Assembly (NCBI GenBank): GCA_052035195.1
Contig: JBPOHU010000001.1
Location: forward strand, 104,031 to 168,030
From: Candidatus Nomurabacteria bacterium
Lineage (GTDB): Bacteria; Patescibacteriota; Minisyncoccia; Phycocordibacterales; UBA9973
Reading direction: 5' to 3'
Length of the DNA stretch: 64,000 nt
A program made the position numbers and the translations under genes. The notes beneath the pieces were generated by a model. That model did not search any database. It was not told where the DNA came from and worked only from the letters and a program-made list of their open reading frames with translations. This document shows positions 3,560-9,914 of this stretch, piece by piece. Every line of letters starts with the position of its first letter. The stretch's first letter is position 1.

Positions 3560-3631
3560 GGCCCTATCGTCTATCGGTTAGGACGAAAGCTTTTCAAGCT
3601 TTAAAGCGGGGTTCGACTCCCCGTAGGGTCA
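3560..3631 (+). tRNA. tRNA-Glu (anticodon TTC)
   Basis: Cloverleaf: acceptor GGCCCTA/TAGGGTC, D-stem GTCT/GGAC, anticodon stem AAAGC/GCTTT with loop TTTTCAA, T-arm CGGGG-TTCGACT-CCCCG, discriminator A. Confidence 0.8.
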
Positions 3632-3643
3632 CAACGCAAAAAG

Positions 3644-3667
3644 AAAAACGCCTTCCAGGGCGTTTTT
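3644..3667. terminator. bidirectional intrinsic terminator nested in a longer inverted repeat
   Basis: AAAAACGCC-ttccag-GGCGTTTTT; the outer arms GGGTCACAACGC (3626-3637) and GCGTTGTGACCC (3669-3680) are also inverted. Confidence 0.6.
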
Positions 3668-3828
3668 CGCGTTGTGACCCTAAGTAAAACAACTGCTTGT
3701 TTTACGGCGGGGAGGCGAACAGCGGAGCTATATTTTTCTAGCAAGAAAAATAGGCGAGCTGGTGCCCAGACAAAATTTTTTGACTGAAAAAGTTTTAATC
3801 GAGGGAGACAAATGAAATGATCCCCGTA

Positions 3829-3855
3829 GGGTCACGAATTTGGGTAATAAAAAAG
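3829..3855 (+). repeat. repeat module M1 copy 1 (GGGTCACGAATTTGGGTAATAAAAAAG), preceded by duplicated tRNA-Glu 3' end
   Basis: Near-identical copies at 5160-5186 and 5799-5825. At this copy the 5' side extends to TCCCCGTAGGGTCAC (3821-3835), identical to tRNA-Glu 3' end 3618-3632. Confidence 0.8.
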
Positions 3856-3880
3856 CCTACAATGTTTTCATCATAGGCTT
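3853..3880 (-). terminator. intrinsic terminator of cassette gene A (minus strand)
   Basis: Minus-strand read: AAGCCTA-tgatgaaaacattg-TAGGCTT followed by TTTTTTATT. Confidence 0.6.
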
Positions 3881-3898
3881 TAAGTTCAGTAAAATACA

Positions 3899-4666
3899 TT
3901 ATGCAGGTATTGAGAACAGTTCCAGGGATTTTTTAACATAATCTCTGGCTGTTTCAATATTAAGGCTATCGTATTCTTTGTTACGCAGCCGTCCTTCTGC
4001 ATCAATGCTTAGGTCCGGGAAATCTTTTACCAACGGCTCGATCAGGTCAAGCGTTGTCGGGCTCAGTCCACCAGCTACACCCAGGCCGAAGTCATTCGGT
4101 TTTACACTTAATGCTTCCAGGTAGCTTCTGGCAATGTCAGGGTTAAATGGCTGTCCTGTTCCACCGCTCGGATCGAGCAGAACGTAGTCAATAAGACCAG
4201 CATATTCGCTGTGTACCTTGTCGGCCAACTTCTTTGGTGAATGTGATATTTCTTCAAAGGCACCACCGCCAATCTGCAGAACAATACTTTTGTCAGGATG
4301 CAGTTCTTTGTAATCCTCCAGTACTCTTACTGAAGGCCATGCGATGTTCAGCTGGAACCCGTTGAAGTGATTACCGGCGAGTTCAGTTACCAACAAAAGT
4401 TGTGGTAGCAGGCTTTCAGGTTCTTTGGTGTTGAAGTGCACCAGGTTCAGGCAGTCTTCAATGTTAGGAAAAATGTTTACCACTTCTCCGATTGCCGGAT
4501 AACGGCCGGGCCATTTGTTCGGAATTCCTTGCAGACTTTTACTGCTTGCGAGAACTCCCACCATCAACATCCTGTCTGCCTTTTTAAGGTCAGTACTGTC
4601 CAGGACGCCAAAGACTTCGGTAGGGGACATAAACCCCGTGATGCCAACATAAGGTTTCTTTTTCAT
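3899..4666 (-). CDS. phosphoribosylanthranilate isomerase (TrpF)-like TIM-barrel protein; cassette gene A
   Basis: MKKKPYVGITGF..., LLDPSGGTGQPFNPD and GLGVAGGLSPTTL match TrpF motifs (KICGIT / LLDxxGGTGxxFDW / LAGGL). Visibly higher GC than its neighbours. The ORF-finder's TTG start at 4723 probably just reads through the conserved leader. Confidence 0.5.
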   Translation of the reverse strand: MKKKPYVGITGFMSPTEVFGVLDSTDLKKADRMLMVGVLASSKSLQGIPNKWPGRYPAIGEVVNIFPNIEDCLNLVHFNTKEPESLLPQLLLVTELAGNHFNGFQLNIAWPSVRVLEDYKELHPDKSIVLQIGGGAFEEISHSPKKLADKVHSEYAGLIDYVLLDPSGGTGQPFNPDIARSYLEALSVKPNDFGLGVAGGLSPTTLDLIEPLVKDFPDLSIDAEGRLRNKEYDSLNIETARDYVKKSLELFSIPA

Positions 4667-4689
4667 TGTTAAATTTTTCTTTACATTAA

Positions 4690-4737
4690 CATTTCCATTA
4701 GATTCGTCAATATTAGGTTCCAAAACTCACTATAAAG
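4690..4737 (-). promoter_or_regulatory. conserved promoter/leader module M2, copy A (minus strand: TTGACG-N16-TGnTAATGT)
   Basis: Minus-strand read: ...GTGAGTTTTGGAACCTAATATTGACGAATCTAATGGAAATGTTAATGTAAAG..., near-identical to copies at 5752-5799 and 6443-6467, always directly upstream of a start codon. Confidence 0.6.
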
Positions 4738-4749
4738 TCTTGTGAACAA

Positions 4750-4785
4750 GAAAGCCGCCCATTTTATGGACGGCTACAACTTCAA
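4750..4785 (-). terminator. intrinsic terminator of the 79-aa gene (minus)
   Basis: Minus-strand read: GCCGTCCA-taaaa-TGGGCGGC followed by TTTCTTGTT. Confidence 0.5.
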
Positions 4786-4793
4786 AATCTTTT

Positions 4794-5033
4794 TCACAAT
4801 TTAACTGAAAGCAAAACCTTTGCAACCTCAACAACTTCTTCCAGATTTGAATATAAACCGTTTGCTATGCTTTCTACAAAATCTGTATAAAGATAGCATT
4901 CCGGTTCATTATCTCGTCTTTCGTTCATTGCACGTGATAGTCTACTAAGAGATTTTATGCTTTCAATTTCTTTAACTACTGCTTCTTTGGTTAACTTTTC
5001 CATGATTATTTGTTTTGTTTTCGCAACTAACAA
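4794..5033 (-). CDS. small hypothetical protein (79 aa; 69 aa if the ATG at 5003 is used)
   Basis: ORF with SD AAGGAAAC 9 nt upstream of the TTG at 5033; own canonical promoter and own terminator; sits between cassette units. Confidence 0.4.
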   Translation of the reverse strand: MLVAKTKQIIMEKLTKEAVVKEIESIKSLSRLSRAMNERRDNEPECYLYTDFVESIANGLYSNLEEVVEVAKVLLSVKL

Positions 5034-5065
5034 ATCAAAAAAGTTTCCTTAAAAGCCTTTAATTA

Positions 5066-5094
5066 ATATTAGCATATTATTAACACTTTGTCAA
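5066..5094 (-). promoter_or_regulatory. sigma70-type promoter TTGACA-N17-TAATAT (minus strand)
   Basis: Minus-strand read: TTGACAAAGTGTTAATAATATGCTAATAT. Confidence 0.55.
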
Positions 5095-5143
5095 TACTAT
5101 GTTAAACTGCATAAATAAATTAATACTTTTAACTATTAGTTTT

Positions 5144-5186
5144 CAAAACTCACTATAAAGGGTCACAAATTTGGGTAATAAAAAAG
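5144..5186 (+). repeat. M2 3' part fused to M1 copy 2 (CAAAACTCACTATAAAGGGTCACAAATTTGGGTAATAAAAAAG)
   Basis: Direct sequence identity with 5781-5825 and partial identity with 3829-3855 / 4721-4737. Confidence 0.8.
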
Positions 5187-5203
5187 AACTGAATAATCAG
5201 TCC
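5186..5203 (-). terminator. intrinsic terminator of cassette gene B (minus)
   Basis: Minus-strand read: GGACTGA-ttat-TCAGTTC followed by TTTTTTATT (the T-tract is the M1 A-run). Confidence 0.55.
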
Positions 5204-5229
5204 TTTAAAAAAATACTTTAGATTTAAAT

Positions 5230-5727
5230 CTATCTCTTTCCAACAAGGAATCTTGCTGTTGGGGATAAGGATATATTTTTATTTACCTCAATAAAACCAA
5301 GGTTGTAAAGACAACCGTTTCCATCTGGTTGTAAATAAACTATTCCCGGTATACCGTCACCATCGGATACATCATCCATTAGTGACACAATAGCTGTTCC
5401 ACGATCAAAATTAGTAGTTCTTAAGTGGTTAATGTAGTTAATAACATAAGTAACACTAATTTTTGAGTAACCCATCTGGAGACTTTTTTCTATTACGTCT
5501 TCCATTGTAAAAGTGTCACCGAGACCGAGATCGTTTTTATCAATAACACCTATTTCGCTCAATGGAGCAATAGGATTCTCGAGGGGTACATCTACCAATC
5601 TGCTGACGCTACCACCAGTCATTAGGTCTCCATAAATATCGTCTACATTTCTACTTTTTAATATTTTTTCTGCCTCTTTTACACTGAGGAATTGAGAAAA
5701 CCCATCTGTTCTAATTGTATAGTTCAT
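5230..5727 (-). CDS. hypothetical protein, cassette gene B
   Basis: 165-aa ORF, ATG directly downstream of M2 copy B with SD AAGGAAAA; AT-rich; no recognisable domain. Confidence 0.5.
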   Translation of the reverse strand: MNYTIRTDGFSQFLSVKEAEKILKSRNVDDIYGDLMTGGSVSRLVDVPLENPIAPLSEIGVIDKNDLGLGDTFTMEDVIEKSLQMGYSKISVTYVINYINHLRTTNFDRGTAIVSLMDDVSDGDGIPGIVYLQPDGNGCLYNLGFIEVNKNISLSPTARFLVGKR

Positions 5728-5751
5728 GTTAATAAATTTTCCTTACCTTAT

Positions 5752-5799
5752 CATTTCCACGATATTCGTCAATATAGGTTTCAAAAACTCACTACAAAG
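5752..5799 (-). promoter_or_regulatory. conserved promoter/leader module M2, copy B
   Basis: Minus-strand read: GTGAGTTTTTGAAACCTATATTGACGAATATCGTGGAAATGATAAGGTAAGGAAAATTTATTAAC-ATG; -35 TTGACG, 16-nt spacer, extended -10 TGATAAGGT. Confidence 0.6.
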
Positions 5800-5825
5800 G
5801 GTCACAAATTTGGGTAATAAAAAAG
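5799..5825 (+). repeat. repeat module M1 copy 3
   Basis: GGGTCACAAATTTGGGTAATAAAAAAG identical to 5160-5186. Confidence 0.8.
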
Positions 5826-5864
5826 CCCACATAATTGCGGACTTGTATAGATTTTTTTACAGAG

Positions 5865-6404
5865 CTATTTAGCTAAAAGCGCTTTCATTACCAATAAATG
5901 TGCGGCATCCTTTAATAACCCTGGAGCATTCAATATCATACCTTTCGGTTTAATATGACCAAAGTGTGTACTAGGAACTCTTCCCAATGAATTTATTCCG
6001 TTTAAAGGATCAAGAAAAAGGTTTTTTTCTTTAAGTAGGCTGACGCCTCTTCCCCAAAGTATTTCAGCCGTATGACTGAAATCCCATCTTGTTACAACAA
6101 CTGAGTAACGTCTACCATTGCGTTTACAATGTTTCCTTTGAATTGTAATAACAACATCAGATTCTACTTCATTTTTTGCTACTTCAAAAATAGGCGTATC
6201 AAATTTATGTATTCTTTCGATAGTATCTAAGCGTTCCTGTTTGGCAAGTTGCAATAAATTGCAATTTGGACCGATACAGGGTTCTTTTACAAATACTTTC
6301 AATTTGATATTTTTAAGCTCAAGATTAGGAATAGATATTCCGGCAATTTCTGCACAAGTGTACAACAAGGTATCTGGGTTTGGGGATAATATTAATGCAT
6401 CCAT
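5865..6404 (-). CDS. hypothetical protein, cassette gene C (contains an Rx4H motif RWDFSH)
   Basis: ORF with in-frame ATG at 6404 (MDALILSPNP...). The finder's longer version starts at 6485 inside the M2 leader and would overlap the HxlR stop. RWDFSH resembles a HEPN Rx4-6H motif, but this is tentative. Confidence 0.45.
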   Translation of the reverse strand: MDALILSPNPDTLLYTCAEIAGISIPNLELKNIKLKVFVKEPCIGPNCNLLQLAKQERLDTIERIHKFDTPIFEVAKNEVESDVVITIQRKHCKRNGRRYSVVVTRWDFSHTAEILWGRGVSLLKEKNLFLDPLNGINSLGRVPSTHFGHIKPKGMILNAPGLLKDAAHLLVMKALLAK

Positions 6405-6442
6405 ATAGACTGTTTTTGTGTAAAGATTTTTTACCACACTAC

Positions 6443-6467
6443 CATTTCCATGATATTCGTCAATATA
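6443..6467 (-). promoter_or_regulatory. conserved promoter/leader module M2, copy C (partial, abuts HxlR stop)
   Basis: Minus-strand read: TTATATTGACGAATATCATGGAAATGGTAGTGTGG; same -35 / conserved spacer GGAAATG / extended -10 TGGTAGTGT. Confidence 0.55.
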
Positions 6468-6469
6468 AC

Positions 6470-6757
6470 TTATTTCTTCCCCCAAGATTCCATAGCATCG
6501 ATAACTTTTTTAAGTTTTTTACCATTTGGAGTTAGGGCGTAGTGAAGCTCATCTTTTTTATAGATTATTTTCTCAGCTTCTAGTCTTTTGAGTTTTAGAG
6601 TTAGAGTTCTAGTGCTTATGCCTGCGAGAGATCGCTCTAGTTCACAAAACCTCATAGGATTATTTAATAAGTCACGAATAATAAGCATAGTCCATGTATC
6701 AGATAGGAGAGTCGCTGTTTTACTAACAGCACAAGATGTATGAGTAGAAGGCTTCAT
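6470..6757 (-). CDS. HxlR-family winged-helix transcriptional regulator
   Basis: CAVSKTATLLSDTWTMLIIRDLLNNPMRFCELERSLAGISTRTLTLKLKRLEAEKII matches the HxlR family pattern; divergent from a YceI-like gene. Confidence 0.65.
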   Translation of the reverse strand: MKPSTHTSCAVSKTATLLSDTWTMLIIRDLLNNPMRFCELERSLAGISTRTLTLKLKRLEAEKIIYKKDELHYALTPNGKKLKKVIDAMESWGKK

Positions 6758-7489: not shown

Positions 7490-8632
7490 ATGGCTCAACA
7501 AAAATTGTTCGTTGATTCAAATAAAAAACTCAAAAAGGTTCTTCCAAAAGAACATGCTTATGATGAAGAGTTCAAAAGCTTAGATTTTATAATTGTTCCG
7601 TATGCATTTTTATTAGGGATTAAGAAAAACCATAAATTACAGCCTATTATTGAAAATAAAATACTCTGTGAACTTTTTTCTAAAAAAGGATCAGGGGATG
7701 TTGATTTAATCAATTTATTTATCAAAAAAGAGGCGCTTTGGTTTAAAAAAGATCCATCAAAAATGTCTAAGGCAAACAATCTTTTATCAGAAGAAGAATT
7801 AAGACGTATCTTTATTTCTGGAGCACTTGAAATAAAATTTCGTCATAAAAGCATTTCTTCATTAAGAAGGTTGTTTAGGAAAAAGCTTCCTAATTCAAAA
7901 CCACCATTGGTTTTTGGTAAAATTGCTCGTTATATCAACAACGGTGCTAGTCACGAATTTTGGTATGAGGAAACAGGAGAAGAAATAGCTCAATTGTTTC
8001 CAGAATTTAGCCCTGAGCTCATTAAGGCTCTTTTGGCTATTACTTCTATAAGAGCAACGCTTCCTTCGAACGTTACAAAGTCTTTTAAGGCTTTGGATCA
8101 GTTCCATCGAACTGAACAGTTTGAGGTTCCTTTTGGTAAAAAGGGAGACAAGAAGATGATTAAAAGTAATTTTAAGGGTTTTCTTGATGCCCAGCTTCAT
8201 CATTTGAATTTACTTAAAAATGGGCAGTCTCTAACTGATCCAAAAAACCTACTAAAAAACGGGCGAAAGATTAAAATGTTTGCCAGTGCAATGGGGTCAG
8301 TTGAAGATGCTATTGTTGACGATGTTTGGATTACCAGAGCTTTTGGTTGCGACAGAAAAAGAGTTTTTGAAAGTCGTATAACTAGTCAGTCTCCCTCTAA
8401 GGCAATCTATGATGCAACAGAATGGTATTTACAAACTATTTCTAAGCTTGTAGATAAAAAACCAAGAGGTGTATGCGCGATGATTTGGGCGGGTATACGG
8501 CAAGAAACAAACAAAGAAACAGCCCGTTATACTGACCCAATAAAAAATCGACTAAACCATGGACTTTTTTCTGAGCAGTATGGAAACCTGAAACCCTCAA
8601 AAAAAGGAGGGATTGAGTTTGAATTATTTTAA
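7490..8632 (+). CDS. hypothetical protein (380 aa)
   Basis: Long ORF with its own terminator (AAAACCCTTT-aaacaa-AGGGTTTTTTT at ~8630-8660); no motif recognised. Confidence 0.4.
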   Translation: MAQQKLFVDSNKKLKKVLPKEHAYDEEFKSLDFIIVPYAFLLGIKKNHKLQPIIENKILCELFSKKGSGDVDLINLFIKKEALWFKKDPSKMSKANNLLSEEELRRIFISGALEIKFRHKSISSLRRLFRKKLPNSKPPLVFGKIARYINNGASHEFWYEETGEEIAQLFPEFSPELIKALLAITSIRATLPSNVTKSFKALDQFHRTEQFEVPFGKKGDKKMIKSNFKGFLDAQLHHLNLLKNGQSLTDPKNLLKNGRKIKMFASAMGSVEDAIVDDVWITRAFGCDRKRVFESRITSQSPSKAIYDATEWYLQTISKLVDKKPRGVCAMIWAGIRQETNKETARYTDPIKNRLNHGLFSEQYGNLKPSKKGGIEFELF

Positions 8633-8729: not shown

Positions 8730-9914
8730 ATGAGAAATAGTACTTTAAAATCTGATTCAGAAGTGTCTAATCAAAATTTTCAAGAACAAAGTCATGTTTG
8801 GTCAAATGCCTGGCTGCCTCTTGATTTAGTTATTAAGTTTCCTCAAGTACGCAAAACCTTTGAAAAGGAATCATTGCAAGAGTTAGCTGATGATATAGCA
8901 AAAAATGGGCTTATACAGCCACCGATGATTGCTAAGTTATCAAAAGAAAATTTTGCAAAATATGTTGAAGTTTTTGAAAAAATATCAAAAACAAAACTTT
9001 TGCAATCAAGCTATCAATTTGAGGAAACTAATACTGGTGAAGTTTGGTATCATGTTTTAGTTGCCGGAGAACGTCGCTACAGAGCACATATGATTCTTTG
9101 GGAAACTGGTTGTACTGACTGCATAAATTCTGCAAGAGATAATAAAAAAACTCTTGAGAAAGGAGAATGCTTTTCAAAGCACTTTCCTCAGCAGTTAATG
9201 GAATCAAGGGTTGGTATTAATATTGACCCAGAAAAAGCAAAAAGTATTCAGTTTCGTGAAAATCATCATGTCAGACCTCCAGCCCATGAAGAAGCTTATG
9301 GTTACCGGGATTATTATGATCACCTGAAAACACTTAATCAAAAACTCACCCTTAAAGAATTTGCTGAAAGGGTAGGAGTTTCAGTTGAAAAAGTTCGGAG
9401 AGCCATATGGTTCTGTGAACTTCCAGACAGATTACGCCAAACAGTGGAAGACAAAATGATTTCGTACTCAAATGCCTTGGAGTTAAAACGTATCCTTCAA
9501 ATAGAAAGCATTGGTTTTAAAGAAAGAATTAAGATTATTAACAACGAAGTAGACTTCCTTCTTATTCATCAAAAGATAAAGAATGAAGATTACAAAAAGA
9601 GAGTCGATAATCTTATTTCTAGTTTTCAAATGCTAACATTGTTCGATACTAAAGAATTTGAAATGGGTAAAAAAGAGAAGCGCAAAGTAGTAAACGAAAA
9701 CCTACTTAAGGGTATTATCCTAATGAGGGGGTATATGACCAAGCTAAACGCTATTATTCCTATGGGAATTATTGGTAAAGGTAGGGTGTATTCAGGTATT
9801 TCTCCAACTAACCAGGTTAAGTTCATCGTTGAAGAGCTCCAAAAAATTATTCCCGGGTTTAAACCTACGAAGCAACAACTGGAACAATTCAAAAAAATTG
9901 ATTTAGACATTTAA
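8730..9914 (+). CDS. ParB/Srx-like nuclease-domain protein with HTH and a Cys-rich insert
   Basis: VLVAGERRYRAHMIL (the ParB GERRxRA box) and KLTLKEFAERVGVSVEKVRRAIWF (ParB-type HTH). Extra CTDC...C cluster between them. Terminator AAAACCCCTCA-ttcg-TGAGGGGTTTTT follows. Confidence 0.55.
   Translation: MRNSTLKSDSEVSNQNFQEQSHVWSNAWLPLDLVIKFPQVRKTFEKESLQELADDIAKNGLIQPPMIAKLSKENFAKYVEVFEKISKTKLLQSSYQFEETNTGEVWYHVLVAGERRYRAHMILWETGCTDCINSARDNKKTLEKGECFSKHFPQQLMESRVGINIDPEKAKSIQFRENHHVRPPAHEEAYGYRDYYDHLKTLNQKLTLKEFAERVGVSVEKVRRAIWFCELPDRLRQTVEDKMISYSNALELKRILQIESIGFKERIKIINNEVDFLLIHQKIKNEDYKKRVDNLISSFQMLTLFDTKEFEMGKKEKRKVVNENLLKGIILMRGYMTKLNAIIPMGIIGKGRVYSGISPTNQVKFIVEELQKIIPGFKPTKQQLEQFKKIDLDI

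Follow-up and report, generated by a model that had tools for sequence, protein, structure and literature searches.

In a window of 64,000 nt (the whole stretch of DNA analysed here, on contig JBPOHU010000001.1 of a Candidatus Nomurabacteria assembly), we found beside a tRNA-Glu gene a small array of self-contained one-gene units that are joined by a conserved 29-nt junction and lie in the chromosome of an uncultivated member of the Patescibacteria (candidate phyla radiation, CPR). We interpret this locus, with a probability of about 0.55, as a hypervariable array anchored at tRNA-Glu, in which autonomous, integrase-less single-gene cassettes are cis-mobilizable and are moved mainly by a site-specific recombinase acting in trans. 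A cassette array had been proposed here in a sequence-only reading of the window, and its main thrust holds up with respect to varying content, linkage to the tRNA and G+C content.

The junction core and the E elements

The junction core is the 29-nt sequence TGTGACC-CTTTRTAGTGAGTTTT-GGAAYC, of which 20 copies were aligned from 12 loci in at least eight distinct Paceibacteria genomes or metagenomes. The 27-nt module M1 that the sequence-only reading had described gave no match in the GTDB species genomes and IMG/VR, and a shorter junction-core pattern, GTGACCCTTTRTAGTGAGTTTT, was used instead; it matched four GTDB genomes and four metagenome contigs. Conservation is 85-100% at the positions that flank this pattern and were left free in the search. 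The junctions have a common order, namely a cargo-specific terminator hairpin, a T-tract, a spacer of 2-12 nt, the core and then variable sequence. The core is mostly followed by TATTGACGAA-N7-GAAATGGTAGTGTAGAGAAAA, predicted to be a -35 box and an extended -10 box, and in other cases by a different promoter further downstream or by the 3' end of an oppositely oriented gene. In the comparison loci L024, L027 and L028, it occurs beside reverse-oriented genes without the promoter block (M2) seen in the window, thus the core is separable from the promoter and not merely a promoter element. It is also more conserved by far than the adjacent promoter and spacer, and the core, and largely the promoter too, keep 80-97% identity when genomes are compared in which the synonymous sites of TsaD are saturated (dS, synonymous divergence, 2.1-2.8).

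The core begins with 8 nt that are reverse-complementary to the 3' end of tRNA-Glu, whose final 8 nt (AGGGTCAC) are common to all junction cores, and all cores stand in direct orientation with that end. Of the eight loci whose flanks are long enough, six have the core next to tRNA-Glu (the window, L019, L021, L025, L027 and L031), consistent with the earlier claim that the junction repeats are tied to the tRNA. The possibility that the core is a decayed T-arm and acceptor stem of tRNA-Glu was rejected, as similarity past GTGACCCT is not significant (p = 0.16).

Within the window, M1 occurs only at 3829, 5160 and 5799 (at most one mismatch; shuffle expectation zero) and the M2 promoter block only at 4690, 5752 and 6443 (chance expectation none), in agreement with the sequence-only reading; AAACTCACTATAAAG is found at 4723, 5146 and 5785. 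The predicted M2 promoter is TTGACG-N16-TAnnGT with TG(G) before it. Near-identical M2 copies had been described in front of each of the three larger genes (A, B and C); all three exist, although the one before gene C has no junction part and directly adjoins the stop codon of the neighbouring HxlR gene. Each of these genes has its own minus-strand terminator that leads into TTTTATTACCC, the reverse complement of M1, so the T-tract of the terminator is the A-run of M1, as had been noted. The small unit intercalated among them carries the predicted TTGACA-N17-TAATAT promoter read earlier and also a terminator of its own. We considered whether M2 could encode a conserved peptide (IDEYxGN), but there is no start codon before gene B and no synonymous-substitution pattern, and it was taken as promoter DNA.

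The 15-nt 3' end of tRNA-Glu is exactly repeated 203 nt downstream, as had been reported. This duplication had been taken as the footprint of the gene units, which share only 8 nt with the tRNA. The gap between the two 15-nt copies is filled by a 188-bp non-coding element, E2, and we therefore assign the duplication, from the arrangement of these sequences, to E2 and not to the gene units, with GTGACCCT as the recombination point used. E2, the sole copy in the window (nhmmer), belongs to a family of structured non-coding elements of 140-190 bp (E). Each copy has a tRNA 3'-end fragment at one border and GTGACCC at the other, and the insertion is always at GTGACCCT. Copies are present at tRNA-Glu (the window, L021, L027, L031, L008, L019 and L025), at junction cores within arrays (L019, L021 and L008) and at tRNA-Val (L021:3007-3168 and L009:8026-8180), where they carry a duplicated and an inverted copy of the tRNA-Val end. 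The direct repeats are about 13 nt long at tRNA-Val and, for E2 at tRNA-Glu, an exact 15 nt; one element family thus targets two tRNAs, each copy being adapted to its own tRNA. The tRNA-Val site is uninterrupted in the window (~2810-2821) and in L025. In L019, two copies of the E1 type, one at the tRNA and one at a junction core, differ at 3 of 138 nt, and their identity stops exactly after GTGACCCT. Taken together, the empty and occupied tRNA-Val sites and the near-identical E1 copies at two sites indicate that E elements move, as judged from these comparisons.

E2 has a terminator hairpin, in which an inverted copy of the tRNA end lengthens the stem, and two long covarying stem-loops. Over 35 pairs, 93.8% are paired and 22 show compensatory double changes; none of 500 shuffles reached this, and slid controls gave 39-51%. 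Counts of G.U versus A.C (8 to 2) weakly favour the tRNA strand as the one that would be transcribed. An Rfam scan of the region, of E and of the linker shared by L002 and L010 (see below) returned only tRNAs. In addition, E itself is an element not described before, strongly covarying in its structure and targeting the ends of tRNA genes. Next after gene A in contig L006 (928-954), from another sample, stands an E element; it and the window copy (~3754) diverge after GTCTGGGCACC, which indicates further E variants in natural populations.

Variation of the array and its explanation

The comparison loci are contigs with homologues of gene A, B or C plus the loci found with the junction pattern. 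Written in gene orientation, the window reads HxlR, M2'-C, M1-core-M2-B, M1-core-small unit, core-M2-A, M1-tRNA fragment, E2 and tRNA-Glu. L021, the cassettes of which are ~93% identical, reads HxlR, small unit, core-M2-B, E1, a reversed 166-aa gene, tRNA fragment, E2 and tRNA-Glu. L019 reads 197-aa gene, tRNA fragment-E1-core, 116-aa gene, E3-core-M2, a homologue of gene C (C'), tRNA fragment-E1 and tRNA-Glu, and L025 consists of HxlR, core-M2, a 133-aa gene, E and tRNA-Glu. Three to four further units are present in L027, L031, L026 and L030, and the genes differ from unit to unit. The interval between tRNA-Glu and HxlR was expected to vary in the number and identity of its units, and it does: there is one in L025, three in L021 and four in the window, and the cargo at tRNA-Glu is different in L019, L027 and L031. 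L021, L025 and L009 all have HxlR in the equivalent place, and another distal flank is found in L031 (TsaD), L027 and L019. No exact repeat in the region is longer than 30 nt, and the window arrangement is found in three independent assemblies (L001-L003) and that of L021 in three Joint Genome Institute samples (L021-L023), therefore assembly artefacts are an unlikely source of these rearrangements.

Between the window and L021, dS is 0.15 for gene B and 0.19 for the small unit, compared with 0.47 and 0.49 for two flanking sequences, the 162-aa gene and the C-terminus of HxlR. This roughly threefold difference means that the cassettes were exchanged after the backbones diverged and are younger than the chromosomal backbone. 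The small unit lies between direct repeats of the core, and the 3' parts GAAAAC and GGAACC are distributed as a crossover inside CTTTATAGTGAGTTTTG predicts. Several short contigs from other samples stop at 3821-3837 and 4743-4753, which are junctions where no 31-mer repeat explains a break, and this hints at polymorphism in the population. Judged from these alignments, cassettes have been gained, lost and re-ordered at the junctions between related genomes. A separate observation concerns L009 and L010, from a related species with a syntenic interval of HxlR, gene A and tRNA-Glu that lacks the 29-nt core; single genes there are surrounded by a terminator+promoter composite of their own, ACTGTGCGGGGTTTTTATTTATTGACTA (L009:4016-4043 and 5448-5475; L010:1122-1149 and 2554-2581).

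Each cassette comprises a predicted promoter of the extended -10 sigma70 type, a short leader, an open reading frame (ORF) and a predicted intrinsic terminator. In the mechanism we favour, the recombination is most probably of the conservative, site-specific kind, with a recombinase provided in trans from elsewhere in the genome or from a visiting element; cassettes would leave as circles and could integrate again at any core, and RecA-type recombination between the repeated junctions probably contributes too. Site-specific recombination is favoured because the core is conserved apart from the promoter, is always direct with the tRNA end and is the place where E insertions end precisely at GTGACCCT. 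We tentatively consider the more specific form of this idea, which is the less probable of the two, that the clade has a native integron-like cassette system with a double-stranded 29-nt core, a crossover in the last 8 nt of tRNA-Glu, retargeting to other tRNAs by E and a trans-acting recombinase. The successive site-specific integrations of the sequence-only reading are something we infer rather than observe, and homologous recombination between junctions explains much of the pattern equally well.

Several points weigh against a dedicated site-specific system. The cores of L024 and L015 have no tRNA within the fetched loci of 8-9.5 kb, and the core and the tRNA have only 8 nt in common, with no significant similarity beyond them. 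No recombinase was detected in the 64-kb window or, by Pfam on flanking ORFs, beside the arrays of L024 and L027. At least one breakpoint, at the HxlR boundary between the window and L021/L019, lies at the -35 box (TATTGAC) and not at the core. The three M1 copies of the window are near-identical, with 30 nt exact, which fits duplication in situ or gene conversion. Finally, the comparison loci are all metagenome assemblies, no circular or empty-site molecule was observed, and movement of the gene units is read from comparative rearrangements only.

These last points bear on a possible, though less probable, account by homologous recombination only, in the manner of the regulatory cassettes of T4-type phages. 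The terminator/promoter junctions would then be regulatory modules between which RecA-dependent unequal crossing-over, gene conversion and uptake from relatives exchange, remove and duplicate genes, with no dedicated recombinase or att site, and the link to tRNA-Glu would exist only because the tRNA's own downstream flank had been the first junction copy. The 30-nt identity of the window junctions speaks for it, although identity tracts of 16-30 nt are near the lower limit for efficient RecA recombination. The breakpoint at the -35 box of the HxlR boundary fits as well, as does the fact that cassette C and its L019 homologue share only the stretch from promoter to T-tract and differ in the spacer, but E inserts precisely at the GTGACCCT of the core and every core is in direct orientation with the tRNA end. 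Likewise, the junction resembles the phage modules (PMC2839356, PMC4122927) in combining the tail of a terminator with a promoter of the sigma70 type, and L009 and L010 use a different repeated composite with no core; against this, the 29-nt core is far better conserved than the adjacent promoter and spacer, and it is found without the promoter by reverse-oriented genes. The lack of a recombinase in the window and the examined array flanks is also in favour of homologous recombination.

It is unlikely that the locus is a graveyard of decayed prophage-like elements or integrative and conjugative or mobilizable elements (ICEs and IMEs) at tRNA-Glu, each of which left one gene and an att remnant as an immobile unit. 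L008, L019 and L021 contain scattered partial copies of the tRNA-Glu 3' end, and the pattern is known from tycheposon islands (bioRxiv 10.1101/2020.12.28.424599) and from the formation of cis-mobilizable elements (CIMEs, PMC5704250), yet random decay would not leave intact single genes under purifying selection with the same promoter and intact terminators, nor keep a 29-nt junction across genomes with saturated dS. A Peptidase_M78 gene with a linker in place of the tRNA side in L002 suggests a larger resident element, but the same cassette (B) occurs in different neighbourhoods and no integrase pseudogenes or fragments were seen in the intergenic DNA. A static co-regulated cluster, with promoter and core as sites for one regulator or sigma factor and the variation as ordinary gene turnover (akin to the paralogous regulon that the sequence-only reading had offered as an alternative), is highly improbable: the promoter, spacer and initial transcribed region (GAAATGGTAGTGTAGAGAAAA) are conserved across cassettes and genomes and the core lies at about -38 to -60 relative to the predicted promoter, where activators and UP elements act, but the proteins of the cargo show no relationship to one another, the core is also seen where that promoter is missing, by genes of opposite orientation or ~65 nt upstream of a different promoter, the cassettes are younger than the flanks, and E insertion targets the core. 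Regulatory and recombination roles of the core are not mutually exclusive.

The absence of an integrase or transposase from the window, already noted in the sequence-only reading, was borne out by a motif regular expression over all six frames, by Pfam on 40 mid-size ORFs and by the Pfam marks between 3.5 and 15.7 kb. The integrase motif search over all six frames of all compared loci found nothing. Searches of viral contigs with the junction core, the E1 start and an E2 block gave no matches or chance matches in unrelated high-GC contigs, and the whole region matched GenBank phages and PLSDB plasmids at the tRNA only.

Two observations concern possible larger elements. The same-species contig L002 is 100% identical to the window over 6.1 kb and departs from it 4 nt into the tRNA-Glu 3' end (3629); what follows (L002:6172-6935) is a conserved non-coding linker (GTGAGCTCGCC..., by eye homologous to L010 3640-3790) and the Peptidase_M78 gene, past which the contig ends before any integrase. 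This variant may represent either a resident element of larger size or a different type of linker; the peptidase has no relatives in the viral contigs. In L008 (1421-5296), two genes at a distance of 2.5-6 kb from the array may belong to a mobile element: one has a GIY-YIG domain (301 aa), and the product of the other (947 aa) has a DnaG-type zinc ribbon.

CPR bacteria have tiny genomes with few recognisable mobile elements and many lineage-specific ORFans, and how they acquire and exchange accessory genes is largely unexplained. A conserved junction, anchored at a tRNA and placed around interchangeable, ready-to-express single genes, would be a concrete mechanism for ORFan turnover, and the 29-nt core offers a searchable signature for the CPR flexible gene pool in metagenomes. 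With a dedicated recombinase, this would be a cassette-capture system of a new kind whose site is simple and double-stranded; if there is none, the principle of the phage modules would extend to cellular chromosomes, with regulatory modules as recombination anchors. Our literature searches found no description of such arrays in Patescibacteria.

Cargo genes and layout of the array

The higher G+C content that had been estimated by eye for gene A was confirmed by calculation: it is 46.6%, compared with 36.1% for gene B, 34.8% for gene C, 33.3% for the small unit and 36.9 +/- 2.8% (maximum 44.0%) for 30 large ORFs of the window. Gene A is nevertheless not the foreign cargo that this seemed to imply. 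It has 618 homologues with 50-92% identity, all named ones from Patescibacteria (Paceibacterota, Magasanikiibacteriota, Moranbacteria and Parcubacteria), and elsewhere it stands in unrelated housekeeping neighbourhoods (L012 and L035), where its G+C content again exceeds that of its surroundings. For these reasons, gene A is a conserved lineage gene placed in the array in this clade, and not exotic cargo. The orthologue in L008 has an orthologous promoter and leader, and the flank CCAAATTC lies downstream there too.

Gene A had been called TrpF-like, which is true for the fold only, because the top Foldseek matches in PDB (MJ1099 and the phosphoribosylanthranilate isomerase TrpF) have 12-15% identity and there is no Pfam or NCBIfam match. 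The AlphaFold2 model is a confident (beta/alpha)8 barrel (predicted local distance difference test score, pLDDT, 92.8), and 38 columns are invariant among 43 sequences. Well conserved, confidently modelled as a barrel and outside any Pfam or NCBIfam family, gene A is therefore a candidate new family of phosphate-binding barrels.

None of genes A, B and C and the small ORF had a match in Pfam, NCBIfam, PHROGs or PADLOC. Gene B falls in only two clusters among 5.8 billion proteins, with nine representatives among 1.84 billion, and gene C in three clusters among the 5.8 billion. Gene B was met in three contexts (the window, L021 and the non-syntenic L015), the gene C homologue of L019 directly adjoins tRNA-Glu, and the small unit follows directly after HxlR in L021, with 93% identity. 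The ratio of non-synonymous to synonymous divergence (dN/dS) is 0.08 for gene A, 0.15 for the small unit, 0.26-0.30 for gene B and 0.19 for gene C, and 0.07-0.36 over all cargo; these values show that the cargo genes are real and under purifying selection. Almost all of the cargo is unique to its locus: an all-against-all blastp comparison of the cargo found only five recurring families (B, C, small, A and one 95-aa gene). Among 24 extra cargo proteins, there were four domain types only (helix-turn-helix, inositol monophosphatase, GNAT and methyltransferase), with one member per Pfam family.

The C-terminal part of the gene B product (residues ~97-158) aligns with repeated stretches, 5-7 of them, in two proteins of the representative library that are much larger (643 and 716 aa), and these alignments suggest a repeat-forming module. 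We also considered gene C as a small serine recombinase, since Foldseek matched sub-regions of the PhiC31 integrase at E >= 0.07 and a template modelling (TM) score of ~0.2. This was ruled out: five models were inconsistent (pLDDT 72, 48, 48, 48 and 31), a PDB profile search was empty, and hhalign gave a probability of 0.6% against gamma-delta resolvase. In L015 (1565-1955), the place of a cassette, flanked by a 230-aa gene and a junction core, is taken by ~390 nt that contain no ORF, yet show a promoter-like site and a strong terminator; this stretch may be a non-coding RNA cassette and has no Rfam match.

The features of the array are listed in Table 1. It is flanked by housekeeping genes (TsaD, FtsZ, FtsA, TrxR and tRNAs). 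Further out, beside YceI and HxlR, the window encodes a DUF7178 protein (380 aa; 7490-8632, plus strand) and a ParB_N/HTH_ParB-like protein (394 aa; 8730-9914, plus strand). This neighbourhood appears conserved in L009, and a DUF7178 homologue lies ~4.4 kb from the lone junction core of L024.

Table 1. Features of the tRNA-Glu array, in window coordinates
Feature	Coordinates	Strand	Remarks
tRNA-Glu(UUC), array anchor	3560-3632	+	ARAGORN; Rfam tRNA, 58.5 bits; 15-nt 3' end TCCCCGTAGGGTCAC at 3618-3632
E2 mini-element, non-coding, 188 bp	3633-3820	+	At tRNA-Glu 3' end
Displaced tRNA-Glu 3' end TCCCCGTAGGGTCAC	3821-3835	+	Direct repeat of 3618-3632
M1 copy 1, GGGTCACGAATTTGGGTAATAAAAAAG	3829-3855	+	tRNA end plus native downstream flank; gene A terminator T-tract on minus strand
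Gene A intrinsic terminator	3852-3881	-	
Gene A, 255 aa	3899-4666	-	(beta/alpha)8-barrel, conserved in Patescibacteria, function not known
Gene A M2 promoter and leader	4667-4715	-	TATTGACGAA...GGAAATGTTAATGT
Junction core copy without GTGACC part	4716-4737	-	CTTTATAGTGAGTTTTGGAACC; direct repeat with 5139-5160, around small unit
Small unit	4753-5138	-	Terminator 4775-4753; 69-aa ORF 4794-5003; promoter 5094-5066; upstream 'M2b' region
Junction core copy	5139-5167	-	TGTGACC-CTTTATAGTGAGTTTT-GAAAAC
M1 copy 2	5160-5186	+	Gene B terminator T-tract on minus strand
Gene B intrinsic terminator	5183-5206	-	
Gene B, 165 aa	5230-5727	-	Rare ORFan family
Gene B M2 promoter and leader	5728-5777	-	
Junction core copy	5778-5806	-	TGTGACC-CTTTGTAGTGAGTTTT-TGAAAC
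M1 copy 3	5799-5825	+	Gene C terminator T-tract on minus strand
Gene C intrinsic terminator	5823-5844	-	Hairpin also kept in L019
Gene C, 179 aa	5865-6404	-	Rare ORFan family
Gene C M2' promoter and leader	6405-6466	-	Without junction core; abuts HxlR stop codon
HxlR-family regulator gene	6470-6757	-	Distal array boundary, outside array; Pfam HxlR, 6.5e-19

Comparison with known systems

Integrons are marked by an adjacent IntI tyrosine recombinase, by attC sites that fold as single-stranded DNA into R''-L''...L'-R' hairpins, and by mostly promoterless cassettes expressed from the promoter Pc. The array resembles integrons, and the attC clusters lacking an integrase that are known as CALINs, in its tandem, mostly single-ORF units of unrelated and mostly unknown functions, in its recurring site and in content that varies between related genomes; like CALINs, it has no adjacent integrase. 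As had been recognised earlier, these are nevertheless not classical integron cassettes. No IntI was found in the window or beside the arrays of L024 and L027, the site starts with a tRNA gene end, and the array is tRNA-anchored. Each unit has its own predicted promoter and terminator, whereas integron cassettes rely on Pc. The junction also lacks an attC-like imperfect hairpin: 91-nt junctions folded as single-stranded DNA, both strands, gave z values of -0.70 to +0.66 versus shuffles and no long hairpin.

Promoter-early stem-loops (PeSLs) are mobile regulatory cassettes of T4-type phages (Arbiol et al. 2010, PMC2839356; Comeau et al. 2014, PMC4122927). The array shares with them small composites of a terminator and a sigma70-like promoter repeated between ORFans in a hyperplastic region, and breakpoints of insertion, deletion or replacement that coincide with the motifs (window versus L021 and L019). 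PeSLs, however, belong to phage genomes, and the array lies in a CPR chromosome, has no PHROG matches and matches phage records at the tRNA only. It has in addition an invariant 29-nt core between terminator and promoter that is related to the tRNA end and is a target of the mini-element. Formation of mini-circles by recombination between the motifs is a further feature of PeSLs.

CIMEs arise by site-specific accretion at the 3' ends of tRNA and other genes (review PMC5704250). The units of the array resemble them in lacking integration and transfer genes, in their tandem order and in the att-like direct repeats at a tRNA 3' end, and E2 with its 15-nt flanking repeats fits the definition of a minimal CIME. 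For the gene units, the direct-repeat criterion is weaker because only the 8 nt GTGACCCT are common with the tRNA. Known CIMEs are decayed ICEs or IMEs on the kilobase scale, compared with 0.15-1.3 kb for the units here, and no cognate integrase-bearing element was identified for the array in the L002 contig or the viral contigs.

Tycheposons build tRNA-proximal genomic islands in Prochlorococcus (Hackl et al., bioRxiv 10.1101/2020.12.28.424599). Shared traits are a streamlined genome without classical mobile elements, a variable island by a tRNA, scattered partial tRNA copies and new arrivals that displace older ones away from the tRNA. Tycheposons differ in spanning several kb with tyrosine recombinases and replication modules, none of which were seen here, where the modules are uniform, single-gene and separated by a conserved junction. 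Finally, phage morons are also autonomous transcription units with their own promoter and intrinsic terminator, but the units of the array lie outside a prophage and follow each other in tandem, with a conserved junction between them.

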